A stretch of 64,000 nucleotides of DNA, taken from the NCBI GenBank assembly GCA_020057405.1, contig JAGVFW010000013.1, positions 23,144 through 87,143 on the forward strand, given 5' to 3'. The DNA is from an archaeon (GTDB lineage Archaea; Micrarchaeota; Micrarchaeia; Norongarragalinales; UBA97). Below the pieces are notes generated by a model. It did no database searches and was not told the DNA's origin. It saw only the letters and a list, made by a program, of their open reading frames with translations. A program made the translations under genes and the position numbers. This document shows, piece by piece, positions 22,962 through 63,201 of this stretch (positions are counted from its first letter, which is position 1; every line of letters starts with the position of its first letter).

Positions 22962-23152
22962 ACAGCCGCTCCCGGCCCCTTCTTTTTTATTTCCCAATTA
23001 CCCCAAAAATACAGGGGATTGTTTTTAGTGACTGAATTCGAGGCAACTGTTGCCGTAATCATCGTGGCCCTCGCACTGCTGTGGCGCTGGTTTTGGCTCT
23101 ACGGCAGGTAACCACCCGGCGTGATTAAAAACAAAACTGCAGAAGAGTATTT

Positions 23153-36709: not shown

Positions 36710-36856
36710 TGGGCCTACGGGGATTTGAACCCCGGCGCTCTGGTTGGCCTAGAAACGCGTCCGTTGCGGACGCGCGTCATATAAGACTTGCGCGAAAAAA
36801 GGGCGGGAAAACCAACCCCGTTTCACAGCGCTCTGGCCAGACTGAGCTATAGGCCC
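36710..36856 (-). tRNA. intron-containing tRNA: 5' acceptor/D-arm and 3' T-arm/acceptor are clear but separated by ~75 nt; isotype unresolved
   Basis: Minus strand reads GGGCCUA-UA-GCUC-AGUCUGGCCA-GAGC-G…[~85 nt]…CGGGG-UUCAAAU-CCCCG-UAGGCCC-A. The best fits need a short intron in or next to the anticodon stem plus a ~60 nt intron in the anticodon loop. Confidence 0.6.
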
Positions 36857-47945: not shown

Positions 47946-48692
47946 ATGCCAGTAGAACGGGTCCAGAGCGGCATTTACGGCCTTGACGAGCTGATTACGG
48001 GAGGGTTCCCAAAGGGCCGCACCATCCTCATTAGCGGCGCGTGCGGCACGGGCAAGAGCATTTTGTGCAGCCAGTACCTCTACCGCGGGGCCGCCGAGTT
48101 CGACGAACCCGGAGTTTACGTCGCTTTTGACGAGCGGCCGGAAGAAATTAGGAGCGACATGGCGAACTTCGGCTGGGACATCGAAGCAATGGAAAAGAAA
48201 GGCAAGCTCGCGATTGTTGACGTTACTAGCGCCAAAGCCGGCGTGCCAAGCGAGGAAGACCACGCAATCCTCCCAGGCCAGCTTGACATTGACAAGATTC
48301 TCGTCGACGCGATTAGCGTGGCGCGCAACATTGGCGCGAAAAGAATGGTTTTCGACTCTATTCCCTCAATGGCCTTCCGCATGGACACCGTCCACGAAAT
48401 CCGCAAAGGCATCTTGAAGCTCGCCTACATTTCGGCCAAAGCCGGCTTGACGACGCTGATTACAACTGAAGCCGAGGAATCGCCTTCCGGCGTTCCAATC
48501 AAGTTTTCCCGCTACGAAGTCGAAGAATACGTTGCAGATGGCGTCGTCGTCCTAGGACTCTTCGGCGGCGGCCAAAGCGCCTTCCGCACACTCCACGTCC
48601 GCAAGATGCGAGGCACCAAACACGCCCTCGAACTCCACCCAATGGAAATAGGCGACAAGGGAATAACAGTCAAGAAGATAGGCGGAATTTAG
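47946..48692 (+). CDS. KaiC-like RecA-superfamily ATPase (single domain), copy 1
   Basis: …GIYGLDELITGGFPKGRTILISGACGTGKS… Walker A in a KaiC/RadA-like context. ~248 aa. Confidence 0.75.
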   Translation: MPVERVQSGIYGLDELITGGFPKGRTILISGACGTGKSILCSQYLYRGAAEFDEPGVYVAFDERPEEIRSDMANFGWDIEAMEKKGKLAIVDVTSAKAGVPSEEDHAILPGQLDIDKILVDAISVARNIGAKRMVFDSIPSMAFRMDTVHEIRKGILKLAYISAKAGLTTLITTEAEESPSGVPIKFSRYEVEEYVADGVVVLGLFGGGQSAFRTLHVRKMRGTKHALELHPMEIGDKGITVKKIGGI

Positions 48693-49225
48693 CTTCCACT
48701 GGTTTTTGGTTTCAAAATAAAAACACACTCTGCTTCCCCAGTACAAACACACTTGGTTTCTACGCATTCAATCTCTTTGTCATATATTGTCGTAAAAATA
48801 CCCGCAAAAAAACCCGCTATAAAATAATCCATAACTACCTTGGTCTTTTCGTTTTTTCGTAAATCATCTTTAGCTAATGAAGAAATTGCTCCGACGATTA
48901 TACTCCCATCTGGGTTTGAAGAAATTCGGTTTATTTTCGCAAGACCTTGTAACTCCACGATATTGCGCCATAACGCTACGCTCTCCATGCCCTTAACCTT
49001 AAAACGCTTATCTAAATCCTCGGAAAAATCCTTAGATGTCCTAAAACCCAAAGTGTACAGAAGTTTTCCAGATTTGGCACTGTTTCCTTCGTTAAGAAGA
49101 CTTCTCAAATGAGAGTGGATAGACGCAGGGTATAACAAATACGTAGAGTTGAAAATAGCCACATCGCCTTCAATAAAGCGCAATTGTTTTGCCATAAGCA
49201 ATTTTTTAAAAAAGCCGGATAACAA
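48689..49225 (-). CDS. V4R-domain (hydrocarbon/small-ligand binding, COG1719-like) protein
   Basis: C-terminal …ECVETKCVCTGEAECVFIL… is the V4R C-x-x-G…C-x-F pattern. The gene is AT-rich. Confidence 0.55.
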   Translation of the reverse strand: MLSGFFKKLLMAKQLRFIEGDVAIFNSTYLLYPASIHSHLRSLLNEGNSAKSGKLLYTLGFRTSKDFSEDLDKRFKVKGMESVALWRNIVELQGLAKINRISSNPDGSIIVGAISSLAKDDLRKNEKTKVVMDYFIAGFFAGIFTTIYDKEIECVETKCVCTGEAECVFILKPKTSGS

Positions 49226-49699
49226 CTAAGTCTCCCCACGTATTCGTTTTATTTTTTCCCACTTTTCAAAATTCAGTACTAAATCGGCTTCTTGGTCGCT
49301 AACAATCGTGCTAACCAAAACTTCTCGGATTTTGGGATTACGCACTAGTTTTGATATAGAAGCTGAAAGCGCTCGAGAAAACTTATCAGAACGCAATTTT
49401 GTAGTAAAATGCGCGGATATTGCTACTGGAACACCCGTCATAATCTCAATAAAGCCGCCTTTTTCGAAGAGAAACCGCTTGTAAAACTTTTCGCCAACGA
49501 TATCTTCACCAATGAAACAGGTTTTTTCTCCGAAGTTTCTCTCCAGTGACTTAACGAATTCAAACAAAGCACGATCAGTTTCAGATTCTGAATTTTGAGT
49601 CGCCAGCGCTACGAGATCCGCAGAGTCCGGCGTATCTGAACCAAAAGGTAGCGCTTCGGGAAGATCGATTAAAGTCACATACGAGTGTCTTAGTTTCAT
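49226..49699 (-). CDS. hypothetical protein (157 aa), co-oriented and contiguous with the V4R gene
   Basis: ORF only. AT-rich. Confidence 0.35.
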   Translation of the reverse strand: MKLRHSYVTLIDLPEALPFGSDTPDSADLVALATQNSESETDRALFEFVKSLERNFGEKTCFIGEDIVGEKFYKRFLFEKGGFIEIMTGVPVAISAHFTTKLRSDKFSRALSASISKLVRNPKIREVLVSTIVSDQEADLVLNFEKWEKIKRIRGET

Positions 49700-49872
49700 C
49701 CGGTACCTCCCACTAACACATTACGCATACTGTAACGCTATTTAAAAACACTAATCTACCCGCATCTCAAAAGACACAGCAGACTTAAAAAGAGACCTAG
49801 CCTACGGGTATATACGCTAAACGCAGGTAGAAGGAAAGAAACTAACCGATAGTAAAAAAACTGGGGTAGATT

Positions 49873-51171
49873 TTGTTGAAAAACTTGCAAGTTGGCATTG
49901 GCTTTTCGGAAGTAGCAGATTCAAAAAAGGCGGCTAAGGCGGCCTCTGAACAAGCGCTGAAAACACTTAAGAAAAAGCCAACAATCACCTACGTTTTCTT
50001 CGCAGGGGAATACGATCCTAAAGAAATAAGCAGGGGGTTAGTTGAAGCACTTGGCGATAGTGAATTTGTCGGGGGTTCCGGTGACGCGGTATTTTTTGAG
50101 GACAAGATATACCGGACCGGAATAGTGGTTGCGGCAATATACAGCGAATATCTCCACGTAGGAATCTCCTCAATCGAAGGAATATCAAAAGACCCCCACG
50201 GACTAGCTAGGAAAGTAACTGCAGAAGCAATGAAGAAAATTGCAATAGACAAGTATGTAGATCCATACTTACAGTTTACTAGAATGAGAAATAGCAGCAT
50301 AAAGTGGATGATTAAAAAACCATCATTCCACATTACAGTTTTTGCGAAAGGTATGAAATTGCCTCAGATGGGAGAAGAAACCAAAATATTACAAGGAATA
50401 ACTAGGGAAATGGGATTCAATGTTCCGATTTGGGGGGGCAGTTTCGGAGTACACCTCGAAAAGCTATTCGAACAAAAACCATACGACATTCACCTCTTAC
50501 ATTCAGGTAAAATACTCACAGACGGCTTAATCGTAGTAGTGAATTCAACAAGTCTACTCTACGGACTATCCTTAGCGCATGGTTCGCAACGGACAAACAA
50601 AATAGGCTTCATTTCTGGCGTTACGGGGGGCGGGTACGTGATAACGGGAATTTCCGGTAAAAACCCCATAGACTGGTATTGTGAAAACCTAAACATACCT
50701 CGAAAAGAGTTTTTAAAAAATTCCATAGTTATTACTCAGAAAAACCCATTAGGAATTCCTGACAACTATGGCGGATTTATTATTAGGGCGGGCGGAGTAC
50801 CCGCTGGAGAAAATCTAGCCTTTACTGCAACGTTCGAAGAAGGTTGGCCGGTATACATCATGGATTCGAGCATAAGCAATATGGCCACGGCACCGGGTAA
50901 AGTAATCGAAGACCTGCGTGCAAGTACCAACGAAGCAACTCCGGCTCTAGCTCTAGCAATCATCTGCGCATCATGCAGAATCGTCACAGGAGAAAAAGGC
51001 GTCGCCGGAGAACTCAAAGAATTAAAGAAAAAGCTCGGCGGGGCGCCAATCGTAGGTTTCTCGTCATTTACTGAAATTGGAGCTAAAGAGGGCGTACCCA
51101 CTACGGTACAGCACGAAGCTACAACCCTACTAACAATTTACGATAAATTGTTGCACGAAGTTAGGGATTGA
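49873..51171 (+). CDS. FIST-domain (FIST_N + FIST_C) putative small-ligand sensor protein
   Basis: N-terminal …PTITYVFFAGEYD… and C-terminal …PIVGFSSFTEIG… match the FIST N and C signatures. Confidence 0.6.
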   Translation: MLKNLQVGIGFSEVADSKKAAKAASEQALKTLKKKPTITYVFFAGEYDPKEISRGLVEALGDSEFVGGSGDAVFFEDKIYRTGIVVAAIYSEYLHVGISSIEGISKDPHGLARKVTAEAMKKIAIDKYVDPYLQFTRMRNSSIKWMIKKPSFHITVFAKGMKLPQMGEETKILQGITREMGFNVPIWGGSFGVHLEKLFEQKPYDIHLLHSGKILTDGLIVVVNSTSLLYGLSLAHGSQRTNKIGFISGVTGGGYVITGISGKNPIDWYCENLNIPRKEFLKNSIVITQKNPLGIPDNYGGFIIRAGGVPAGENLAFTATFEEGWPVYIMDSSISNMATAPGKVIEDLRASTNEATPALALAIICASCRIVTGEKGVAGELKELKKKLGGAPIVGFSSFTEIGAKEGVPTTVQHEATTLLTIYDKLLHEVRD

Positions 51172-51182
51172 GTTGAACCTGC

Positions 51183-52730
51183 GTGACACCTATTCGAAAC
51201 GCAACAATTTTAGTGCTGGGCGGAGCAGGACAAGTAGGCTTCGAATTTTGTTCACAAATCCTATCCAAAAATCCACTGAAGCTCATTATTTGCGATATAA
51301 ATGAGAAAAAAGTTAAGTCTGCCATTAGTAGATTAAATTCAAAAAGTCGTACGACCGCAAAAATCGGAGAATGGGGAGATATTTTTTCAGATAAACCGAC
51401 AGCGAAGTCTGCGCTCATTCAAATAAAAAGCAGCATTGTCGAACTGACGAACCGAACTGGCGTGCTGGCGGCTAGCGATGCCTCAGATACCTTCCTTTAC
51501 AAGCTGATATGCAAATACAAGCCCGACATCCTTGTTGATGCGGTCAATACAGCTACTGCACTGGCTTACAAAGATAGTCGCGAATCAAAAACGCGCGAAT
51601 CTACGCAACAAAACGACCTACCAGAACCGGTGCCGATTATGCAATTAATTCGACACACGCAAGTGTTGTTTCAGGCGTTCAGAAAAGCACAAACTAAGGA
51701 ATATATAAAAATAGGAACTGGCGGAACCGGCGGCCTTGGTTTCACTTTGCCATATACACACGGTGAAAATGAAGTTCCGTCAAAACTCCTAATGAGTAAA
51801 TCTGCCGTTGCAGGCGCGCAAACCATGCTTTTGTGGGTTTTGGCAAGAACTCCAATGATGCCAATAATAAAGGAAATTAAAGTTACGGCACTCATAGGAT
51901 GGAGAGAAATTGGGCGGGGTGAATTCACCATCGACTCCGAACCAATCGCACTCTATGATTGCCCAATTGAAAAGAGCCTAACTATCAGCGATGCGCTAAA
52001 AAAACACAATTCAATCAGATTAAATAAAAATCTACACGGGACGTGGATTGACACTGGAGAAAATGGAATATTTACTAAAGATATGTTCGCGGCTATTACT
52101 TCGAGAAACAACATGGAGCTAATTACTCCAGCAGAAATAGTCAAAATAATCATAGACGAAATTGAAGGCAAGCACACCGGGAAAGACACAATATCGGCCA
52201 TGGATAATGCAGTACTTGGCCCTACACTAATCGGAAGCGGAATGCGGCAAGTCGCTATAGATCGAATGAAGGATGACGACGAAGTTGTGGCAAGTATACC
52301 GACGCTAGGCCCCCTAACGGCAAAAATATTGTGGGAAGCCGCATTACTGAAAACCTCTTTCGAGAATATCGATCAAGTAATAAAAGAAAATGAAAAACAT
52401 ATATCGGAAAGGACTTTTGAAAAAATAAGCAGAGATCAAACGCTGAGAGCTAAAATAATATCCATAGGAATACCCATCCTCTTACCTTCTGGTAAGCTTC
52501 TTCGCGGTCCAACTATATCAATTCCAGATCAGAGTCGAGTATCCTCAAACCTGCGAGATGTCGAGACTTGGGCCGCCACTGGCTGGGTAGACCTTAGGCC
52601 TAAAAACTGGCTGCTTTGGAAAACCTGGCTCCGCGACTATCGCACATCTAATAACAATTCATTCAATATCGGCGAGATTTGCGGATGGATTTTTGCGCAT
52701 AAGCTTGGCGGAATGAGGATAAAACGGTGA
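51183..52730 (+). CDS. Rossmann-fold NAD(P)-binding oxidoreductase of uncertain family (515 aa)
   Basis: N-terminal ILVLGGAGQVGFEF…LIICDINEKK… (GxGxxG plus an acidic residue after β2) and …PDILVDAVN…. The remainder is unassigned. Confidence 0.5.
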   Translation: MTPIRNATILVLGGAGQVGFEFCSQILSKNPLKLIICDINEKKVKSAISRLNSKSRTTAKIGEWGDIFSDKPTAKSALIQIKSSIVELTNRTGVLAASDASDTFLYKLICKYKPDILVDAVNTATALAYKDSRESKTRESTQQNDLPEPVPIMQLIRHTQVLFQAFRKAQTKEYIKIGTGGTGGLGFTLPYTHGENEVPSKLLMSKSAVAGAQTMLLWVLARTPMMPIIKEIKVTALIGWREIGRGEFTIDSEPIALYDCPIEKSLTISDALKKHNSIRLNKNLHGTWIDTGENGIFTKDMFAAITSRNNMELITPAEIVKIIIDEIEGKHTGKDTISAMDNAVLGPTLIGSGMRQVAIDRMKDDDEVVASIPTLGPLTAKILWEAALLKTSFENIDQVIKENEKHISERTFEKISRDQTLRAKIISIGIPILLPSGKLLRGPTISIPDQSRVSSNLRDVETWAATGWVDLRPKNWLLWKTWLRDYRTSNNNSFNIGEICGWIFAHKLGGMRIKR

Positions 52731-53884
52731 TAACTAACTTCGAGGAGCTTTTAACAACATCCTCACGCACATTAGACCCGAAACAGATTTCACCAGCCGT
52801 ATGGGCTTCAAAAAATTGGGAAAAACTAGATAGGAAAAGTACTGAAACGACCCTTCTTCCGTTTATTAAGTTTCAAATTAATCGCGCTGGCAAAGCAATG
52901 CCAGATATTTACTCGCCATACACGAAAAAAAATACGCCAATAAACGAGTTTGAAGATTTTTTTAATTTACCTGCACTAGTAAAAGACACGGGAACCCACT
53001 CCATCGGATTTAGAGAAAAGGTCAAACTTAATCCGTATATACTATTACCAAAAGATACGAGTTCAGCTACGGTCGTCTATAAATCAGGCGGTACTCGGGG
53101 TACAGCCACTCCCACGTTTCTAACCACTTGGGATCACGAAGTTGAAGCGCTTTCCTTAAAAAAGTGCTTCGAGTATATGGGAATAAAGAAAGATGTGGTT
53201 GCGCTTAATTCTTACAATCCGACACATAAAGGCGGACAACTGATTACCAATGCACTCTTAGCTCTGGGCGTAAAAGTTATACCTAGGCGTACAACCGATA
53301 CGCCAACAGAAATGATTAACACGATAAAAACCTACGGCGTATCAATGTTAGCAACAGTACAAGGCCCACTTAGTGAAGATGATAATGTTCGAAAAGGCGC
53401 AGGGATAGATTTCCTATCACTTATTGAAGCGGGACAAGATGTACTCGAACAACACTTAGACTTGTTGTTCATTACCGGCTATTCGCTCATTCCGGAAGTT
53501 ATTGCTTGGTCAGAAAGTAATAAAAAAAACCTCGCTACGTGTTTAGGTTCTTCGGAAGCAATTCCCCAAGCAACTAGCACAGTAAAAGGTACAAAGTGCA
53601 AATACAACAACCTGCACCTGATTAACGGCCCCCACTACCTCGAAATCGTAAAGCTGGAATCTGGAACACTCGTTCCAGTAAAACGGGGAGAAACTGGCCT
53701 GCTACTATACACCACCATTGCAAGAGACGGTACGATATACATCCGATACGCTCCGGGTGACGCGGCAACACTAACGGCTTACGGTGGAGAATGCGACTGT
53801 GGAATACGTACACCCATCATTTCAAATATTCGAAGAATAGATATACCTGAAGATACTATTGCCGCCGGCTGTTGCATAGGGTAG
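52727..53884 (+). CDS. adenylate-forming acyl-protein synthetase-like enzyme (LuxE / PaaK / F390-synthetase superfamily)
   Basis: …VYKSGGTRGTATPTF… is P-loop-like [ST]SG[ST]xG. …YAPGDAATL… is present. The C-terminus ends …GCCIG, as with the LuxE acyl-Cys near its C-terminus. Confidence 0.5.
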   Translation: MITNFEELLTTSSRTLDPKQISPAVWASKNWEKLDRKSTETTLLPFIKFQINRAGKAMPDIYSPYTKKNTPINEFEDFFNLPALVKDTGTHSIGFREKVKLNPYILLPKDTSSATVVYKSGGTRGTATPTFLTTWDHEVEALSLKKCFEYMGIKKDVVALNSYNPTHKGGQLITNALLALGVKVIPRRTTDTPTEMINTIKTYGVSMLATVQGPLSEDDNVRKGAGIDFLSLIEAGQDVLEQHLDLLFITGYSLIPEVIAWSESNKKNLATCLGSSEAIPQATSTVKGTKCKYNNLHLINGPHYLEIVKLESGTLVPVKRGETGLLLYTTIARDGTIYIRYAPGDAATLTAYGGECDCGIRTPIISNIRRIDIPEDTIAAGCCIG

Positions 53885-55311
53885 AACAAATGACCCACCT
53901 AAAATTTAACAACTATATAGGCGGAAAGGAAGTTCTACTTTCAGGACAAACTTTTACAGTTGAAAGCAGCATATATCCCGACTATCAGTTTCTAGCTCCT
54001 GAAGCGGGACTATTTGATATTAAAACGGCAATTTCTAAGGCGCGTACATCTGTAAAAGACTGCCACGCACTTACCTTTAGCGAACGAATAGAAATACTTG
54101 AACGAGCGGCGGCTTCTTTTTCGCCAACTGCAACTGATTTCGAGTTCGCTGTCAAAACCACAGGCATGCCCATATCAAATGTTAGGTCTTTTTCAGAAGA
54201 TATTCGAAATATTTACCGCAATGTACCGATTGCTATAGAAAAGCACATAGGCCGGCTGGGCGACCGGTTCGGACATGACCTTAGACACTCAGAAGGCACC
54301 GTGCATTTTGAACCAATAAATGGAATAGTATATGCAATTACGCCAGGTAACGATATTCGCGTAACCGCATTCATTGCAAGTTGGCTAGTAGCCTTAGGAA
54401 TACCCGGAATATTTAAATGCTCAAAAAACGACCTCGCGTTTGCTAATAAAACTTTACAAAAGTTAGTCGAGGCGGGCTATCCGGAAGGCGGTCTTAACCT
54501 GCTTTGTTGGGATACACAAAAAAAGGAAAATGCTAAATTAAATTTCGAATTGGTAGATTCTTCGAAAGTTGTTTGGGCATATGGAGCCGATTCGACCGTT
54601 GATTTCATGCTTCGATTTGAAACAAAATCTGAAAACCAAGTTTTAGATCACTTTTCGGACAAAACCATACTAAGACATGCAACCGGAAGAACCGCAGCTA
54701 TATCCTCTCCGAAAACAGACATCGAAAAAGTATCTGAACGCGCGACTACCTCCGCTTTAACTTGGCCGATTGGTTGTAACTCGCTAAAAGCACTATTTAA
54801 CGCATCCAACAAAAACACCGAGGTTGTTAGCGCCCTAACGGAAAAGTTCGAGCAACTTGCTAAACATACCGGCGACCCCATGAAAAACACTACGAAGATA
54901 GGCTTCACGGAACCAAAACTACTAGCCCAGGTGTGGAACAGAATAAATGACCTCAAAAAAACCGGTCAGCTTAGCTTGCTTACTGGAGAAAAAATTAGTG
55001 AAAGACAATGCACGCCGCTACTCTTAGAAACTCTCGACCTTAATTCGGAATTCCTAAACACTGAATTTTCTACTTATCTACTAACTATCAAAAACTGCTC
55101 CGGGTTTAGTGAAGCGATAGATGAGGTCAATGTAACTTCAGGTGCGAATAGACGACTCGTAGTAACTGTTTTTTCTTCTGAAAATGAAAAACTCGGAAGA
55201 ATTCACGCGCACCGAATAAATATGAACACCATAACAACCGATCTCGACCTATTATTTCAAGAAGGAAACGACTACTTTAGCAAACTGACTACGCCCCAAC
55301 TTCATAAATGA
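53872..55311 (+). CDS. LuxC-like acyl-CoA/acyl-protein reductase (divergent ALDH superfamily)
   Basis: Segment-by-segment similarity to the LuxC pattern. AITPGNDIRVTAFIASWLVAL matches LLAGNVPLSGIMSILRAIL. GIFKCSKNDLAFAN matches CIIKTSSTDPFTAN. VVWAYGAD matches VIVAWGGPD. ERQC matches QRAC (catalytic Cys). Confidence 0.6.
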   Translation: MHRVEQMTHLKFNNYIGGKEVLLSGQTFTVESSIYPDYQFLAPEAGLFDIKTAISKARTSVKDCHALTFSERIEILERAAASFSPTATDFEFAVKTTGMPISNVRSFSEDIRNIYRNVPIAIEKHIGRLGDRFGHDLRHSEGTVHFEPINGIVYAITPGNDIRVTAFIASWLVALGIPGIFKCSKNDLAFANKTLQKLVEAGYPEGGLNLLCWDTQKKENAKLNFELVDSSKVVWAYGADSTVDFMLRFETKSENQVLDHFSDKTILRHATGRTAAISSPKTDIEKVSERATTSALTWPIGCNSLKALFNASNKNTEVVSALTEKFEQLAKHTGDPMKNTTKIGFTEPKLLAQVWNRINDLKKTGQLSLLTGEKISERQCTPLLLETLDLNSEFLNTEFSTYLLTIKNCSGFSEAIDEVNVTSGANRRLVVTVFSSENEKLGRIHAHRINMNTITTDLDLLFQEGNDYFSKLTTPQLHK

Positions 55312-55325
55312 ACGAATAGAACGCA

Positions 55326-56099
55326 TTAAAGCTTCAAAACGTCTTCATCGGAAACAAACTCGATTCCGCTCTTTGAAAATCTATACGATAACGCCTTCCG
55401 TTCATGATCAGTATACCTCATTTTTCTAACTTGCAAAGATCGAAATTCGGCAGTACCTATTCCAAAAAAACTCAGGAAAATTACACCATCGGCAAGAAAT
55501 TCTGAAATTCCGTCCGAACTCATACCTTTTCCTCGCTCTGGCAATTCTGAAGTGAGAAAAATTGTCGCACCCAACGCCCTTAGACTAGAAATAACCGTAG
55601 CTAACATTCGCTTAGTCATAGTTTTCTCCGAAGTACTCCTAGGTGGAATTTTATCTAAACTTCGTGAAGGCACCCCTCCGCGCTTAAGCAATACTTCCTT
55701 TGCAAAATCAGATACCAAGGCAAACTCAGAAAAAGTACTCATAGAGTCTAAAACCAGCCGTTGCGGAGAAAACTGACGAATCGCAGTGAAAATTTCGCTC
55801 AAAAAAGACTCGTCCTTTAATATATCTACATAAACTATTTTGAGCAAGTTTTTATCTACCCAAAGATTCAAATCCCACCCGTATTGGGCAGCTTGCTTAT
55901 TCAATTCTTCAAACGTCTGTTCGGTTGAAACGTACATACTTCGCTCATTATTTGCTATCCCCTGAAGTAAGAAATGCAAACATAAGGTACTCTTACCAGT
56001 TCCGGCCCCCCCCGAAATTAATACTACGTTCCCCTTAGGAATGCCCCCACTAATGGCCTCATCCAAGCCGATAATGCCAGTTTTAACTCTCTCAATCAT
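55326..56099 (-). CDS. KaiC-like RecA-superfamily ATPase (single domain), copy 2; ~35% identical to copy 1
   Basis: …GIIGLDEAISGGIPKGNVVLISGGAGTGKS… plus a Walker B-like VLDSMS. Confidence 0.75.
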   Translation of the reverse strand: MIERVKTGIIGLDEAISGGIPKGNVVLISGGAGTGKSTLCLHFLLQGIANNERSMYVSTEQTFEELNKQAAQYGWDLNLWVDKNLLKIVYVDILKDESFLSEIFTAIRQFSPQRLVLDSMSTFSEFALVSDFAKEVLLKRGGVPSRSLDKIPPRSTSEKTMTKRMLATVISSLRALGATIFLTSELPERGKGMSSDGISEFLADGVIFLSFFGIGTAEFRSLQVRKMRYTDHERKALSYRFSKSGIEFVSDEDVLKL

Positions 56100-56120
56100 C
56101 GAGATACTTAGGCTTGCCCA

Positions 56121-57011
56121 TTAAAAAAGCATATCGGATCGGGTAGCTTTACCCCGTTTGAATCCACCTTTAGTCGGGCCTACCTCAAACACGCATTTTT
56201 GGTCGCCTTTTGCTATGCACTTGGTTTCTTTTGCTTCGATTGCTGGGTCACCATACATTACGGCGAATCCTCCCGCTAGGCAGCCGCGCAGAAAATCGTC
56301 CACAGGCTCCTTGCTTTTTCCGAAACGATTAAGGTATTCGACTGCGAAGGGAGAATAATCTACTGTGACGAAAGCGGTTTTATTTGCCGTATCTATCTGC
56401 TCGATGTTTAGACTCCCCCAGCCGACTATTGAGAGCGTGTCAATGCCGTGCTGGAGTTCTACATCCAAGTCGCCACGGGTTACGCCCGTTCTACGCATTT
56501 CAGAATACCAACTGACGCTCATATCTCTTACCGTTTTGTAAAGAAGGCCGGGCTTCTTTTTGAGTTCAATGTGCCAAAGTAGGTACTGATACATCGGAAT
56601 CATGCAAATCTTGTGCCCAAATAAGTAAAGCTCATCCTTCGACAGGGTGAGATTTCCACTAAGCAAAAGATGTTTGAGCAGCGACAATGCCCTAAATGCA
56701 GAAAACATCCGGCCCTTGGCCGGAATGGCGAAAAAAGTTTTTGAATCGGAAGACGCCTGTATTGTCGAAATTTCTTGCGCCAAATTTCCCAACCAAACGC
56801 GATTAATAGAATAACCGGCATCATCTTTCACTAGCATTCCGGCGGCGGCCATTTCGCCGAGCGCCTTGTGTACGCCTTGGTAGGTAGCTTTGGTGCCTTC
56901 CTTTTGCACTGCCTTGAACGTTTCTTTTGCCGTTAGGGGCGCTTGCTCGGAGAGCGCGTTAAGCGTGGCGCCTTTCACACCGCCCAATGCAGAGCCTAGG
57001 ACTGAACTCAT
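56121..57011 (-). CDS. winged-helix plus V4R-domain putative ligand-responsive regulator (start moved to MSSVLGS…)
   Basis: The N-terminal wHTH (…PLTAKETFKAV…ATYQGVHKALGEM…GYSIN…) is shared with the three upstream paralogues. The C-terminus has …KCIAKGDQKCVFEV…, a V4R pattern. Confidence 0.55.
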   Translation of the reverse strand: MSSVLGSALGGVKGATLNALSEQAPLTAKETFKAVQKEGTKATYQGVHKALGEMAAAGMLVKDDAGYSINRVWLGNLAQEISTIQASSDSKTFFAIPAKGRMFSAFRALSLLKHLLLSGNLTLSKDELYLFGHKICMIPMYQYLLWHIELKKKPGLLYKTVRDMSVSWYSEMRRTGVTRGDLDVELQHGIDTLSIVGWGSLNIEQIDTANKTAFVTVDYSPFAVEYLNRFGKSKEPVDDFLRGCLAGGFAVMYGDPAIEAKETKCIAKGDQKCVFEVGPTKGGFKRGKATRSDMLF

Positions 57012-57835
57012 TTTCTCCCTCCGCACAGTGCAATCGTTTCTTTCTTTAGTTGGTCGGCGAGGGCTTGGTTGCGGATGACTGCAACTGGCACTCGCGCCTT
57101 TTTCATGAAAACCGCCTCGTAGAAGCTGTCGACATCGAAGTCGCTCATTTTGGAGGCGGAGTTGTAGACTTTGTCGAGTGCTTTCTTGAACTCGAGCGGG
57201 TAGTAGACGCGCACAACGAAGTCCTTGTAGACGACGGTATCCGTGCTCGTCGCTTCCTTCACGCCAATCCGGTGCTTCAGCTTGGAGTTCTTGCGCCAGT
57301 AGTCCGCGCACCAGCGGTCAAGCGGCGTGTCGGCAGGCGTTATCGAGTAGCTGTCGGACACGCTTACCAGCTCCTTCATGCGCAAGTAAGTCTCGCGGTT
57401 GAGGAACAGGGGAACCCAGAAGTGGCACCACTGCAGCGCCAGTACCTTGTCCTTTGGGTCAAAAACCTTCTGCGCGAAAGAGACAAGGAAATCGTCAACC
57501 TCGGCAACAGAATCAAAAAAAAGCACCGACTGGCCGGCGGGCATGCTTAAACCGGTCTTCGAATAGGAAGACTTGAGCTCGTCAGAAAACCGTGAGAGTC
57601 CATCAATCCAATCAAAGGAAAGAGAGTAACCCTCTGGAGAACGGGAAATCACGCCCTCCAAAGAAAGCTCGCCTAAAGACTTGTGGATTGCCTGATAAGT
57701 AAGGTGCGTTCCGTTCTTCGCAATTGCGGAATGGATTTGCTTGGCAGAGAGCGGCCACTTGGCAGAGAGAACACTGATAATCGCGCTTTTCGCGTCCGCT
57801 TTTCCTCGACTGCCTAGAGTAGGTAATTCAATCAT
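57008..57835 (-). CDS. winged-helix regulator-family paralogue 2, unknown C-terminal domain (start moved to MIELPTLG…)
   Basis: wHTH …PLSAKQIHSAIAKNGTHLTYQAIHKSLGEL…GYSLS…. C-terminal …DFVVRVYYPLEFKK…RVPVAVIRNQALADQL…. Confidence 0.5.
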   Translation of the reverse strand: MIELPTLGSRGKADAKSAIISVLSAKWPLSAKQIHSAIAKNGTHLTYQAIHKSLGELSLEGVISRSPEGYSLSFDWIDGLSRFSDELKSSYSKTGLSMPAGQSVLFFDSVAEVDDFLVSFAQKVFDPKDKVLALQWCHFWVPLFLNRETYLRMKELVSVSDSYSITPADTPLDRWCADYWRKNSKLKHRIGVKEATSTDTVVYKDFVVRVYYPLEFKKALDKVYNSASKMSDFDVDSFYEAVFMKKARVPVAVIRNQALADQLKKETIALCGGRK

Positions 57836-58683
57836 TTCCTTCCCCTCCTGAACTCGGCGAGCGTTTCGTCGATGATTTGTTTTGCCATTGCCTTGTTGCG
57901 GGTGATGACTACTGGGACTTTCATGCGGGCGCCGATTCCGACGAGCACGTAGTCGTAGACGACACGCATTACGCTGGCCGCTGACTGGGACGAGAAAGTC
58001 AGGTGCATGAACTTTTTGAATGCGGGGGGCCAGTAGATGTTGATTACGTAGTCGTTGAAGGCGAGCACGTCGCACGCTTCGGCAACGTCAACACCGGCAA
58101 GCCATTTGAGGGCTATTGGACCCTCCAAGTACTTCAGGCAGTAAATGTCCCCAGGTGAGTTGCCTCGGCAGAGAGCGTAATTGCCCTTGCTTTTCTTGAA
58201 TCTGGCCATTTTCTTGTATTGCTCCTCGCCAACCATTTGCGCCGCCCAAGCGAACCCGCAGTGCTGCACAATCACGCTCTTGCCTGCGGCGATTGGAGGC
58301 ATCTCATCAATGACCCAATAGGGGGCGGAGATTATGCCCGTAAAAGTGTAGGAAACCGAAGAGTTGGGAGGAATTTCCAAGAGACGAGGAGGCTCTCCGC
58401 CCGAATATCGCTTGCTAGCGTCATTCCACCAAGCTTTCTGCGCTTCGACCCACCCTGGCGAAAGCGAATATCCTTCCGGCAAGCGCGAGATAACGCCATC
58501 GGCCGACAACTCGCCCAAGACCTTGTGCACCGCTTGGTAAGTAAGTGGCTTGCCGCCGTCCTTTGAAACTACAGCGTGCAACTGCTTTGCAAACAAGGGC
58601 CATTTGACTGCTAGCGCGTTGATCACGCGCGAGCGGGCGTCATGCCTGCCGCTTGCGAGCAGTCCCGCGTTAAGTTCAGCCAC
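57832..58683 (-). CDS. winged-helix regulator-family paralogue 3
   Basis: Same wHTH (…PLFAKQLHAVVSKDGGKPLTYQAVHKVLGEL…) and the same C-terminal motifs (…DYVINIYWPPAFKK…KVPVVITRNKAMAKQI…). Confidence 0.5.
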   Translation of the reverse strand: MAELNAGLLASGRHDARSRVINALAVKWPLFAKQLHAVVSKDGGKPLTYQAVHKVLGELSADGVISRLPEGYSLSPGWVEAQKAWWNDASKRYSGGEPPRLLEIPPNSSVSYTFTGIISAPYWVIDEMPPIAAGKSVIVQHCGFAWAAQMVGEEQYKKMARFKKSKGNYALCRGNSPGDIYCLKYLEGPIALKWLAGVDVAEACDVLAFNDYVINIYWPPAFKKFMHLTFSSQSAASVMRVVYDYVLVGIGARMKVPVVITRNKAMAKQIIDETLAEFRRGRK

Positions 58684-59578
58684 TGCGCTTGCCTCCGGTT
58701 TTGAAGTGCGTTGCCAGCTTCCTTCTCATTTCTCTTGCAAGCGCGGCGTTTCGGGTGATGACTAGCTTGATTTTGAATTTCTTTTGGAAGCAAATCTTGT
58801 AGAGGGAATTGAGGTCCATGATTTTTTTTATCATGTTCTTACTGAACCACGCCATTACTTCGGGGGGCGTGTAAATCTGGACGATAAAATCGCCGAAAAC
58901 CACGGAGTCTACCTTGTTTGCAGGGTCGGTGCCCATAACGTAGGGCGTGCCGAAACCACGCTTCCAAAACTCTAGAGTGAACCTATCGAGAAAGAAGTTC
59001 GTCGTGCACACGAGCCTTGTGCGGGCCGAGGAAGTAAGCTGCCTGATTTCATCATACTCTTTCTTGCTAACAATAAAGACCGGCCAGGCGCCGTACATCA
59101 CGATGAAAACATCGCCCTCGACCCTGTGCTTGAGAGTATACTCCGCCATCTCGGAAAGAACCCAGTAAAAGGGCGCGGCCAGACTCTCGTTAAACTCCAC
59201 AGTTGTGCTGGAATCAGGCGCAATGTCGGCAAACGAAATGCGGTCAGGCGAGACGTGACGCACTTCCGCCTCCTGCAAAAACTTCTTAGAACGCGAAATC
59301 CAGTCAAGAGACAAACGATAATTGCTAGAAAAATTGCGCTCAAGCACGCCCTCAGAAGCAAGGCGCCGAACCACCTTGTGGACGGCCTGGTAAGTCAACT
59401 GCTTGCCGCCGTCAGATAAAAGAAGCGAGTGAACATGCTTTGCGGACAACGGGGACTTTCTAGCCAGTGCCGAGATTACACGCGAGCGGGCGTCACGGCG
59501 CCCCGACGCTAGGACACTTTCCGAAAGCCCCCGATCTAAGTTGCCAACCAAACCCCAAACCACCACTCCGCAGGACAC
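58676..59578 (-). CDS. winged-helix regulator-family paralogue 4
   Basis: …PLSAKHVHSLLLSDGGKQLTYQAVHKVVRRL…, …DFIVQIYTPPEV…, …KLVITRNAALAREM…. Confidence 0.5.
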   Translation of the reverse strand: MSCGVVVWGLVGNLDRGLSESVLASGRRDARSRVISALARKSPLSAKHVHSLLLSDGGKQLTYQAVHKVVRRLASEGVLERNFSSNYRLSLDWISRSKKFLQEAEVRHVSPDRISFADIAPDSSTTVEFNESLAAPFYWVLSEMAEYTLKHRVEGDVFIVMYGAWPVFIVSKKEYDEIRQLTSSARTRLVCTTNFFLDRFTLEFWKRGFGTPYVMGTDPANKVDSVVFGDFIVQIYTPPEVMAWFSKNMIKKIMDLNSLYKICFQKKFKIKLVITRNAALAREMRRKLATHFKTGGKRSG

Positions 59579-59620: not shown

Positions 59621-59697
59621 GCTATAAACTTTTAGTTGATTGCAGTTCTACCGCACCTCTTTATTCGGGCACAAACACAATAATTTCGACAAAGAAG
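59621..59697 (+). promoter_or_regulatory. conserved upstream motif, copy 1 (AACTTTTAGTTGATTG-CA-GTTCTACC plus a ~30 nt extension)
   Basis: Shares a ~30-nt block with 61668-61699, and a ~75-nt block with 63238-63306. Confidence 0.5.
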
Positions 59698-59710: not shown

Positions 59711-60592
59711 ATGATAGAAAATAATCGTGAGCGGATTCTTCTTCGGCTCTTGCTGACGCCGGTTCCTCTCCTTGCACTCGTGACGACCGCACTCTTGCTG
59801 GCGGCTGGAACCGCACATGCGGACGGTAACTTCACGCTCATACAATTCAACACTACGAACATAACCGCCATAAACGCGACGCGGTTGCTGCCGGATTTGA
59901 TTACTGGATTGTCTGCAGACCGGACGGAACTCTATGTAGGCGAGAGCTTCACCGTAACCGAGCGCACGCTCAACATCGGCCGCGGACGCGCGAAGGCGTC
60001 GTCAACCGCATCCCACATGGTGTTCAGGGGGAATGGCTATGGCAACGGCGGCTCGGCGTATGTTCCAAAACCAGTTTTGCGGCCGGGGCAATACGCCGAC
60101 TACAACGGAACATTCTACTGCGGCGACGTTGGCAACTACACCTTCAGCGCGCAAGCGGACTACTTCAACAACGTCACCGAGTCCAACGAGACCAACAACA
60201 ACGCGTGGGCGGCCGTCAACGTGACCTGCACTGCGCCACAAGGGTCGGACCTAGTCACGCGGTTCGACAAGGCAACAATAGGAAATTACACATACTACCC
60301 CAGCAACGGCAGGATTTTCATTCCGTTCAACACCAACGTTACTTTTTATGAAACGACTTCGAACATAGGGGGAGCTTTTGCCTCACCTTCCACCACCGTA
60401 ATCGGAACTGTCTCCGGTAGGCATTACCTAGCCAAACCGAGCATCGCCCCCAACTCGTCAATTCAGTCAACATTTACGTACAAGTGCAGATGGGACGAAA
60501 CAATTAACGTCACTGCAGATTACTTTGGCGAAGTGAGCGAAAGCAATGAATCGAACAATTTCGTCGAGCTATACGTCGGTTGCGTGTGGTAG
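59711..60592 (+). CDS. secreted protein with two CARDB-like (Ig-like) repeats
   Basis: Signal peptide. Repeated …SFTVTERTLNIGRGRAKAS… and …YETTSNIGGAFASP… segments, each ending …NN.V…V.C…. Confidence 0.5.
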   Translation: MIENNRERILLRLLLTPVPLLALVTTALLLAAGTAHADGNFTLIQFNTTNITAINATRLLPDLITGLSADRTELYVGESFTVTERTLNIGRGRAKASSTASHMVFRGNGYGNGGSAYVPKPVLRPGQYADYNGTFYCGDVGNYTFSAQADYFNNVTESNETNNNAWAAVNVTCTAPQGSDLVTRFDKATIGNYTYYPSNGRIFIPFNTNVTFYETTSNIGGAFASPSTTVIGTVSGRHYLAKPSIAPNSSIQSTFTYKCRWDETINVTADYFGEVSESNESNNFVELYVGCVW

Positions 60593-61732: not shown

Positions 61733-62635
61733 GTGAACATCGAAGTTGTTGATTGGAAGATTATTGGAACCTGCAATTTGCGTTGTTTGCACTGCTACGG
61801 CCCGCCCAAAACGGATACGGCCCTCCCATTAGAGAAATTACTAGCAATCATCGACAAGTTCAAACTTCTTAAAATAAAATGGGTGGTGCTAACTGGAGGT
61901 GAACCCTTGCTCGTACAGAATATAGAAACAGTATTCCGTCACTTAAATCAGCACAACATCAAAATCGCTTTATCGACTAACACCACCTACTTCAGAAAAT
62001 TTCAACCATCCATTGAAAAGTACGTTTCGTCACTGAATATTCCGATTGACGGTTCCACACCAGAAATTCACGCTAAATCACGTAAAGACACGGCGTCATA
62101 TCATTCAGCAGCCGATGTCCTTAAGTTCTACCTTGAAAATCCGGAAAATAAACCCGAACTACTTCGAGTGGGGACTGTTTTCTCGAAAGCTAACCAAGGA
62201 GATTTCATCAACATTGCAAGGCTGCTTGAACCCTACGAATCAATCATAAGCACGTGGAAGATCTACGAATTAATGAACTCCGACACGCACCTTGATCTCA
62301 GAGCGCCGATTCTCCACGAACACGCTAATTTTGAACTGGAAATGGAGGAACTACACTCTACGGGCTTGCTTTCATCGAAAATATTGGTTTCCCGCGCTAG
62401 CTCGAGAAATAAGGCCTACTTTATGCTTAATCCCCAAGGGCAAGTCGTAGTTCCGACAAACCTAGATGGCATCTCCACGGACATGCCTGCCGGAGACTTC
62501 TTATGGACTCCAACGGACAAGTTGTTGGCACGCTGGCAAACAATGGTTTCCACAGAAAACTATAACTCAAACCACACTCGCCACTATGGCAAGATTAAGC
62601 TAACTCCGATTATGCTTGAGATGAAAGCGCGATGA
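61733..62635 (+). CDS. radical SAM protein (GTG start)
   Basis: CNLRCLHCY (C-x3-C-x2-C) and VVLTGGEPLL SAM-binding motif. No SPASM extension. AT-rich. Confidence 0.75.
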   Translation: MNIEVVDWKIIGTCNLRCLHCYGPPKTDTALPLEKLLAIIDKFKLLKIKWVVLTGGEPLLVQNIETVFRHLNQHNIKIALSTNTTYFRKFQPSIEKYVSSLNIPIDGSTPEIHAKSRKDTASYHSAADVLKFYLENPENKPELLRVGTVFSKANQGDFINIARLLEPYESIISTWKIYELMNSDTHLDLRAPILHEHANFELEMEELHSTGLLSSKILVSRASSRNKAYFMLNPQGQVVVPTNLDGISTDMPAGDFLWTPTDKLLARWQTMVSTENYNSNHTRHYGKIKLTPIMLEMKAR

Positions 62636-63201
62636 CTGGGGAACTGATGGACGTAGTCAACCACGCAAATGCCGTTATTGGAAGCGCGACAGTAAGCGAA
62701 GTGTATGAGCGTAAATTATCGCACCGGATAGTACATGTTTTTGTCCTCAACCAAAATGGCGAAGTATACCTGCAACAGCGGGCCCTAACTGACTCATTTC
62801 TTCCAGGGTACTGGTGCACCTCTGCAGGAGGGCACGTAAGAAAAGGAGAATCGTACGAAGATGCAGCGCGCAGAGAACTTGAAGAAGAGCTTGGCCTCAA
62901 AGATGCACCACTCGCCCCGCTAGGCAGCACTTTTCAATTCCAGCCCGACGAACACCAACGCCACCTGCAAGTCTTTGTCGCGTTCTCACCAAAAAGTCCG
63001 GCCCCAAACAAAGCCGAGGTGCATAAGGGTAAATTTTTTGACCTAGGGGAAGCGATACGAAAAGTCAAGTCAAACAAGCAAATTCATCCTCAACTTCAGC
63101 CCTGCTTGGCTCTGCTTTATGAAAACAGGGAAAGGCTTAAGGAAAGTCTGATCTTCTCTCCGAAAACCGAGCGGGAGCTATCGGCGAAATCCTCAAAATA
63201 G
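62632..63201 (+). CDS. NUDIX hydrolase (IDI/YfcD-like)
   Basis: Nudix box GGHVRKGESYEDAARRELEEELGL. ATGA overlap with the radical-SAM gene. Confidence 0.7.
   Translation: MTGELMDVVNHANAVIGSATVSEVYERKLSHRIVHVFVLNQNGEVYLQQRALTDSFLPGYWCTSAGGHVRKGESYEDAARRELEEELGLKDAPLAPLGSTFQFQPDEHQRHLQVFVAFSPKSPAPNKAEVHKGKFFDLGEAIRKVKSNKQIHPQLQPCLALLYENRERLKESLIFSPKTERELSAKSSK

Follow-up and report, generated by a model that had tools for sequence, protein, structure and literature searches.

A predicted regulatory array of TrmBL2-like and V4R-bearing winged-helix proteins beside a KaiC-like ATPase gene in a micrarchaeon

Four consecutive genes of a micrarchaeon, here called A to D, encode paralogous proteins with a common winged helix-turn-helix (wHTH) head and are followed on the same strand by K2, a gene for a KaiC-like ATPase. 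They lie in a stretch of 64,000 nucleotides (nt) that we analysed as a whole (the window), which covers positions 23,144 to 87,143 of the forward strand of contig JAGVFW010000013.1 (GenBank assembly GCA_020057405.1). The products of A, B and C represent a variant, distinct in sequence, of the TrmB/TrmBL2-type regulators; they belong to a large, unannotated family of DPANN archaea. With somewhat better than even confidence, we read the whole as a DPANN regulatory locus in which the TrmBL2-like A–C and the V4R-bearing D form one operon and K2 stands as a separate unit. The five genes are the following (aa, amino acids).

Gene A: 58676-59578, minus strand; 300 aa, GTG start at 59578; wHTH head and PLD-like domain
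Gene B: 57832-58683, minus strand; 283 aa, GTG start; wHTH head and PLD-like domain
Gene C: 57008-57835, minus strand; 275 aa, ATG start; wHTH head, long helix and PLD-like α/β domain
Gene D: 56121-57011, minus strand; 296 aa, ATG start; head at residues ~12-85 and V4R at residues ~98-294
K2: 55326-56099, minus strand; 257 aa, ATG start; KaiC-like ATPase, 3' of D

Results

One DNA-binding head with different C-terminal modules

An earlier sequence-only reading of this DNA had proposed that the four genes share an N-terminal wHTH, that three of them share a second, C-terminal domain and that the fourth carries V4R in its place, and BLASTP together with Pfam agrees with this description. When the four proteins were aligned pairwise by BLASTP, the similarity of the heads (N-terminal ~90 residues) was significant in all six pairs and not a matter of chance, with E-values from 1e-12 to 1e-29 and identities of 31-59%. 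The tails (C-terminal ~190 residues) of A, B and C match one another at E-values of 1e-18 to 1e-21 and 25-30% identity, whereas the tail of D shows no similarity to them (E ≥ 0.4). All the motifs that had been named occur in the sequences: LTYQA[IV]HK, DF[VI]V.[VI]Y.P and V[IV]TRN.A.A. A to D are true paralogues on one DNA-binding head. The best-conserved stretch of the protein is the recognition helix (TYQAVHK), in which Tyr47 is kept in 73, and Gln48 and Lys52 each in 72, of 75 diverse family members.

The V4R domain of D is only marginally recognized by Pfam (PF02830, E 2.6e-7; 31.1 bits, with the cutoff at 31.0 and the Pfam core at residues 229-279), and our home-made V4R profile matches D at E 6e-87. 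The domain contains three cysteines, Cys244, Cys265 and Cys273. Alignment shows the pattern GGF...ETxC...GDxxCVF to be kept in D and three relatives; the paralogue P0005 lacks the first cysteine. An AlphaFold model of D, for which D and P0005 were the input, reached a predicted local distance difference test score (pLDDT) of 49 and was left out of the fold search. The arrangement recalls MsvR, a redox regulator with a helix-turn-helix (HTH) and a V4R domain, in which three conserved V4R cysteines control redox-dependent DNA binding (PMC3729527). D likewise has an N-terminal HTH, followed by the predicted long helix of A–C, and a C-terminal, three-cysteine V4R. It is, however, no MsvR orthologue (16 bits against the cutoff of 220 of NCBIfam model NF053755), and its head is of the DPANN family type, not of the MsvR type. 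In bacteria, V4R sensors are of the PoxR/MopR type. The architecture of a one-component sensor, in which a sensor and a DNA-binding domain share one chain, is seen both in D and in relatives that bear FIST domains.

The C-terminal domain of A–C has a predicted PLD-like fold in TrmBL2 order

A, B and C match nothing in Pfam or NCBIfam; in the 75 members scanned, the tail is likewise outside every Pfam family, and the family profile matched no PDB chain even at E ≤ 10. The structural assignment comes from an AlphaFold model of C, built on an alignment of 12 sequences (mean pLDDT 81; 80-93 in the tail). In this model, a wHTH at residues 15-72 is followed by one long helix (74-92) and a PLD-like domain of β-α-β type (102-272). 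In a Foldseek search of the PDB, the top eight matches were all TrmBL2 chains, aligned over the full length at E-values of 1e-8 to 7e-7. TrmB and TrmBL2 consist of an HTH, a dimerisation helix and a domain at the C terminus (PMC4877046; PMC4158304), and TrmBL2 lacks the additional sugar-binding domain (PMC4877046). At the level of the fold, C has the domain order of the TrmB family, that is wHTH, dimerisation helix and α/β C-terminal domain. It ends at residue 275, right after the α/β domain, and the sugar-binding β-barrel subdomain of TrmB and TrmBL1 is absent, which agrees with the TrmBL2 subtype.

The wHTH, the long amphipathic helix and the α/β domain are thus what A–C have in common with TrmBL2 of Pyrococcus furiosus (PDB 5bpd, 5bqt and 5box) and with TrmB (2f5t and 3qph). 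The two groups differ in sequence, with only 10-13% identity, below the Pfam thresholds of PF01978 and PF11495, and the family of A–C has a signature of its own (W-P-L, TYQAVHK, D173, D199 and K-N256). They also differ in distribution, TrmB and TrmBL2 being found in Thermococcales or haloarchaea and the new family in DPANN archaea, and in organization, since the latter occurs in tandem arrays, in forms with two or three C-terminal domains or fused to HAD, and in linkage with KaiC and V4R. As no homology to TrmB could be detected at the sequence level, we call A–C TrmBL2-like in architecture and fold and do not count them as members of the Pfam TrmB families. The possibility that Tyr47 corresponds to Tyr50 of TrmB was considered and dropped, as hhalign sets H51/K52 opposite the Tyr-Asp of TrmB. 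The sequence-only reading had termed the tail of A–C an unknown ligand-like module. Its fold can now be named, and only the ligand-like character is still something that we infer; for the C-terminal domain of TrmBL2 itself, ligand binding is not known.

This ligand-binding role is suggested by conservation. A set of polar residues (H138, T170, D173, D199, D205, Q209, K/R255, N256 and R/K264) is kept in 56-69 of the 75 members. In the model of C, each of H138, T170, D173, K/R255 and N256 comes just behind the C-terminal end of a β-strand; D199, D205 and Q209 are in a β-hairpin (199-210) and R/K264 is in the last helix. Folds of the α/β class commonly bind ligands at strand ends, and the polar set may form a ligand-binding pocket.

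One could also imagine catalytic activity of the domain, as a nuclease or phosphodiesterase like Nuc, NucT or Zucchini, within a DNA-targeting defence or mobile-element system. The conserved set of His, Lys/Arg, Asn and Asp residues would suit such an enzyme, as would the mosaic and partly low-GC character of the locus described below. The α/β fold of the PLD superfamily is indeed present. Yet the family of A–C differs from that superfamily (Nuc, NucT, Zucchini/PLD6 and the DUF1669 of FAM83) in that the catalytic HKD motif, HxK(x)4D(x)6GSxN, is missing from the conserved columns of the 75 members. The hairpin at 199-213, on which we place the HKD site by inference and not by residue-level superposition, has the consensus DxxVxGDxVxQxFxP, and the sole well-conserved histidine, H138, is followed by W instead of xK. 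TrmB and TrmBL2 have the same fold without catalysis. Furthermore, PADLOC found nothing for A–D and only generic P-loop matches for K2, and no relatives of the family were found in viral contigs. We therefore regard the enzymatic explanation as hardly credible; the PLD-like domain is probably non-catalytic, by analogy with FAM83 and TrmB.

A large family with many architectures, confined mostly to DPANN archaea

An exhaustive search with a hidden Markov model (HMM) of 1.84 billion cluster representatives (clusters at 50% identity) recovered 2417 family members at E ≤ 1e-3, of which 610 reach E ≤ 1e-30, and nearly all of the best 150 matches span the full profile of ~275 aa. Word-indexed searches had returned just 5-14 relatives, and an alignment search with the head only gave ten short fragments. 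In their sources, the family records that we checked are labelled 'hypothetical protein' or unnamed. A scan of genomes, with one genome per species, yielded 35 loci. The labels of 26 of them are Micrarchaeota, Iainarchaeota (Diapherotrites), Aenigmatarchaeota or Nanoarchaeota; eight more are named 'archaeon' or 'uncultured archaeon', with no phylum, and one belongs to Methanosarcinales (L018).

Tandem arrangement is common in the family: two or more head genes are present in 15 of the 35 loci, and one of these (L012) has five, with 4-nt overlaps. The proposal that a single head is combined with exchangeable modules, made for this window, holds across the family. V4R is the swapped module here, and elsewhere the head is joined to two or three tandem PLD-like domains (P0008 and P0015-P0018), to a PLD-like domain together with a HAD hydrolase (P0101, Pfam E 2e-19), to a PRT-like domain (P0014) or to FIST sensor domains. 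The last of these combinations is encoded by the third gene of the tandem array in L018 (7795-9297; Pfam E 6e-22). Three further proteins, P0020, P0122 and P0153, are also listed among the multi-module relatives (tandem PLD-like, PLD-like plus HAD, or PRT-like).

Genes of the family are linked to K2-type KaiC

The other part of the proposal, an association with KaiC-like genes in other genomes, was examined with small home-made profiles of head, tail, V4R and KaiC, searched against all open reading frames (ORFs) of the loci. The closest relatives, L001 and L002 (groundwater metagenome) and L003 (a metagenome-assembled genome), keep the gene order. A B-like, a C-like and a D-like (wHTH-V4R) gene are followed by a K2-type KaiC, a V4R protein of ~185 aa and a protein of ~180 aa, and then by a reversed prenyltransferase gene and a reversed second KaiC gene (K1). 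Among the 35 loci, 15 have a KaiC-like gene in the flanks examined (about 7 kb). In nine, from several phyla, no more than 300 nt separate it from a head gene. Twelve of the 15 linked genes are clearly K2-type, with 42-49% identity to K2 versus ~31% to K1. The flanks searched add up to about 402 kb, in which, by our estimate for genomes of ~1 Mb with one or two copies, about one K2 gene would be expected by chance. A V4R gene of ~185 aa stands directly beside the KaiC gene in six of the 35 loci; directly 3' of a K2-type gene, it is found in L001, in L003 and in six GTDB loci. The KaiC linkage is thus conserved across DPANN phyla and specific for the K2 subtype, which supports a functional connection. 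Judged from this gene order, a functional link of the array to the KaiC-V4R module is likely.

The array as a probable operon and K2 as a probable separate unit

Genes A and B overlap by 8 nt (GTGGCTGA). At the B/C and C/D junctions, inspection of ORFs and starts confirmed the ATGA overlaps that had been noted for the array. At 8-10 nt 5' of their starts, B, C and D each have a GGAGG (58692-58696 for B and 57018-57022 for D). We infer from these junctions that A to D form one translationally coupled operon. The start of A at GTG 59578 has an alternative at TTG 59551, behind GGAGTGGTG, according to inspection of candidate starts. With this gene, our home-made profiles give E 2e-32 for the head (residues 18-107) and E 1e-57 for the tail (residues 120-295); the corresponding values for B are 1e-34 and 3e-58. 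The JGI call of gene A (P0007, 257 aa) begins at TTG 59449, so that the first two wHTH helices (region 59449-59578) are lost, and it is probably a mis-called start. Gene B is identical to the database protein P0006, which its source labels 'hypothetical protein'.

Two elements read from the sequence bear on transcription.

BRE/TATA-like element AAAAGTTTATA (BRE, B recognition element): 59623-59633, minus strand; 5' of gene A
T-run and TATA-like box TTTTTTAA: 56121-56128, minus strand; includes the stop of D and ends 21 nt before the ATG of K2

The first is a candidate promoter by its consensus and probably drives the A–D operon. The second bears on the claim that the five genes form one transcript. 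If they did, the wHTH proteins might act as one-component sensors that relay ligand signals to KaiC or form a complex with it. This explanation has several points in its favour. All five genes are on the same strand, A to D overlap and only 21 nt separate the stop of D from the ATG of K2, a gap that read-through beyond the T-run could conceivably bridge. The order of a D-like gene followed by K2 is kept in L001 and L003, head and KaiC genes are co-directional also in L006 and L007, and sensor-type modules (V4R, FIST) occur on the same head. However, a Shine-Dalgarno site precedes B, C and D but not K2, and the spacing of the TATA-like box of K2 recurs. Boxes ending 21-25 nt before KaiC starts are present in at least 12 related loci and also at K1 in the window. 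In archaea, the centre of the TATA box lies about 26 nt 5' of the transcription start; the first gene of a unit often lacks a leader, and Shine-Dalgarno sites are found at internal genes. The layout of K2 fits that of an independent leaderless unit on both counts, and we consider that K2 is probably a separate unit with its own candidate promoter and a leaderless mRNA. In addition, among the nine loci with tight spacing, seven have the head and KaiC genes in divergent and two in co-directional orientation. This ratio points the same way, and co-transcription is not the conserved feature; divergent pairs are also the classical arrangement for a regulator with its target. There is also no evidence of contact between the proteins. 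A common transcript of all five genes, with a relay to KaiC, is therefore unlikely. A scan for promoters and terminators of bacterial type returned no more sites than in shuffled sequence; it is irrelevant to an archaeon.

K2, K1 and the V4R gene

K2 matches Pfam KaiC (PF06745) at E 2.2e-48, and its translation contains Walker A (GGAGTGKS) and Walker B (RLVLDS) motifs. It falls below the cutoff of every NCBIfam KaiC, circ_KaiC, ArlH or RadB model. It is a single domain of 257 aa without the CI+CII duplication and is not a bona fide circadian KaiC; in the Pfam scans of neighbouring genes, neither KaiA nor KaiB was named. In these respects it resembles the archaeal single-domain KaiC-like ATPases (arCOG01171-type; ArlH), with one RecA/KaiC domain next to putative sensor or output proteins. 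Makarova et al. reportedly proposed in 2017 that archaeal KaiC-like ATPases are signalling hubs. In the searchable literature, we found no report that pairs a K2-type KaiC with members of this wHTH family and a V4R gene. The Pfam match of K2 is split in two by an insertion containing LLKRGG (residues ~125-170; window ~55590-55725), which, among the KaiC genes examined, is common only to K2 and its orthologues in L001 and L003.

The second KaiC-like gene of the window, K1 (47946-48692, plus strand), is GC-rich and converges, with a 4-nt overlap, on a gene for a stand-alone V4R protein.

Stand-alone V4R protein: 48689-49225, minus strand; 178 aa, Pfam V4R E 4.5e-10

This V4R gene is possibly the displaced partner of K2; since it is only 26% identical to the L001 copy, its orthology is uncertain. 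K1 is 93% identical to its L001 counterpart and K2 only 55% to its own. The KaiC-domain protein NEQ174 (256 aa) of Nanoarchaeum equitans is among the three most abundant proteins of that archaeon (PMC3149612), a point of possible interest should K2-type KaiC have a core function in DPANN archaea.

Mosaic evolution of the array

Nucleotide identity to L001 changes abruptly along the locus. K1, a housekeeping-like gene taken as background, is 80-88% identical, and codons 59 onward of C reach 77-90%, whereas codons 1-45 of C are only 54-62% identical to the L001 orthologue and 60-66% identical to the neighbouring wHTH-V4R gene (P0005). D is 81% identical to L001 D over codons 1-30 and 44-50% thereafter, and its GC content drops from ~0.55 to ~0.45 near codon 60. 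The identity of the B tail is 51-61% over most of its length, with 74% in the last window of the comparison, and that of K2 is 50-68%. Two sharp steps can be placed.

Junction in the head of C: 57659-57703, minus strand; codons ~45-59, at the LTYQAIHK motif
Junction in the head of D: 56919-56966, minus strand; codons ~16-31

As both transitions lie inside the heads, they are direct evidence that modules have been exchanged by recombination within the shared head. We also considered that C is a recent fusion of the P0005 head with the P0001 tail and dropped this idea, given that the identity of the C head to P0005 is so limited; the exchange in C is therefore old, or the donor was another allele.

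The GC content of K2 and of the V4R gene is ~40% in each of the three genomes, compared with ~55% in the background. In the window, the low-GC tract extends from 48600 to 56100 (0.38-0.44 versus ~0.55) and includes K2, a cluster of plus-strand genes, a gene of 157 aa and the V4R gene. The cluster consists of a FIST gene (49873-51171) and of SDR-like (515 aa), AMP-binding-like (385 aa) and ALDH/LuxC-like (479 aa) genes. Because V4R directly follows K2 in L001 and L003, the cluster, which separates the two here, looks inserted. FIST occurs both in this cluster and, in L018, fused to the same wHTH head.

Elsewhere in the window, a gene for a CARDB-domain protein (59711-60592, plus strand) is divergent from gene A, and two ORFs follow at 61733-62635 and 62632-63201 (both plus strand), one with a CxxxCxxC motif (radical-SAM-like) and the other with a Nudix box. 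A tRNA match of 147 nt (36710-36856, minus strand), seen by Rfam but not by ARAGORN, presumably represents an intron-containing archaeal tRNA; together with the gene content, it is indicative of an archaeal source.

Discussion

If A–D are a regulatory operon, the wHTH and the long helix would allow the proteins to bind DNA in dimeric or tetrameric form. The near-invariant recognition helix suggests that the paralogues would address the same class of sites, to which their different C-terminal modules may bring different signals, via the polar pocket of the PLD-like domain or the cysteine-bearing V4R. The likeliest targets would be the array's own operon and the adjacent K2-V4R module, and new combinations of head and module could arise through recombination in the conserved head.

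Several observations weigh against this reading. On the side of the fold, the assignment comes from one AlphaFold model made from 12 sequences. PF01978 has no match in A, B or C, and only three of the 75 members match it weakly (best E 0.004, below the cutoff); PF11495 is not among the 25 most often matched of the 81 Pfam families hit in these members at E ≤ 0.1. In hhalign, the probability was 0.6% against one haloarchaeal TrmB and 3.4% against 11, where only the region from helix 3 to the dimerisation helix was aligned, with a shallow, halophile-only template set that gives low power. Ligand binding by the PLD-like domain is deduced from conservation, and the promoter and leaderless-start calls are sequence patterns. 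In 14 promoter and intergenic regions searched for an operator by shared 8-mers and inverted repeats, only TATA-like words were common. The invariant recognition helix is also compatible with non-specific DNA binding. Finally, 20 of the 35 loci have no KaiC gene in the flanks examined, several of which are short.

Two other explanations draw on these points. In one of them, A–C are TrmBL2-like chromatin proteins that coat DNA non-specifically and respond to no signal, and the position beside KaiC has no meaning. TrmBL2, the best full-length structural match of C, is abundant, binds DNA non-specifically and assembles into tetramers and filaments (PMC4877046), and a recognition helix that hardly varies between paralogues and phyla, with no operator motif, is what one would expect of such a protein. 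But the tails of the paralogues have strongly diverged while keeping the polar set, the head has been fused to V4R, FIST, HAD and PRT-like modules, up to five different copies stand in tandem and the link to KaiC is specific for one subtype. These features suit a family of regulators better than a single bulk chromatin protein, and we hold the chromatin explanation to be very unlikely. In the other, the array is no more than a common kind of lineage-specific expansion, its transcription factors having unrelated regulons, and the adjacency of K2 is coincidental or simply marks a variable region of the genome. This would account for the loci without KaiC, for the location of K2 in a low-GC tract (~0.41) unlike A–C (~0.53) and for the apparently inserted cluster that parts K2 from any V4R gene. 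It is at odds with the excess of K2-type genes over the number estimated for chance and with their close adjacency to head genes in several phyla, and it appears highly improbable to us.

It is tempting to extend the regulatory reading further, to a DPANN-specific signalling pathway made up of K2-type KaiC, its V4R partner and a TrmBL2-like transcriptional output that would read a phospho-ligand or the phosphorylation of KaiC. The His, Lys, Asn, Arg, Thr and Asp residues of the putative pocket would recall the types of residue that bind phosphate in true PLD enzymes. We consider this extension distinctly unlikely as it stands. If true, it would be an archaeal counterpart of the cyanobacterial output from KaiC to transcription, passing through what is possibly the main transcription factor family of these reduced genomes.

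The genomes of DPANN archaea are tiny, most of these archaea remain uncultured, and to our knowledge their gene regulation is almost wholly unexplored. For a family that lies outside Pfam and NCBIfam and counts at least 2400 clusters (at 50% identity), our analysis provides a fold, a probable role and a partner in the genome. Should the association with the K2-type KaiC-V4R module prove functional, archaea would offer a concrete case in which a KaiC-like ATPase serves as the signalling hub that has been proposed. Recombination in a conserved DNA-binding head is, as the locus also shows, a way in which regulators can acquire new sensor domains.

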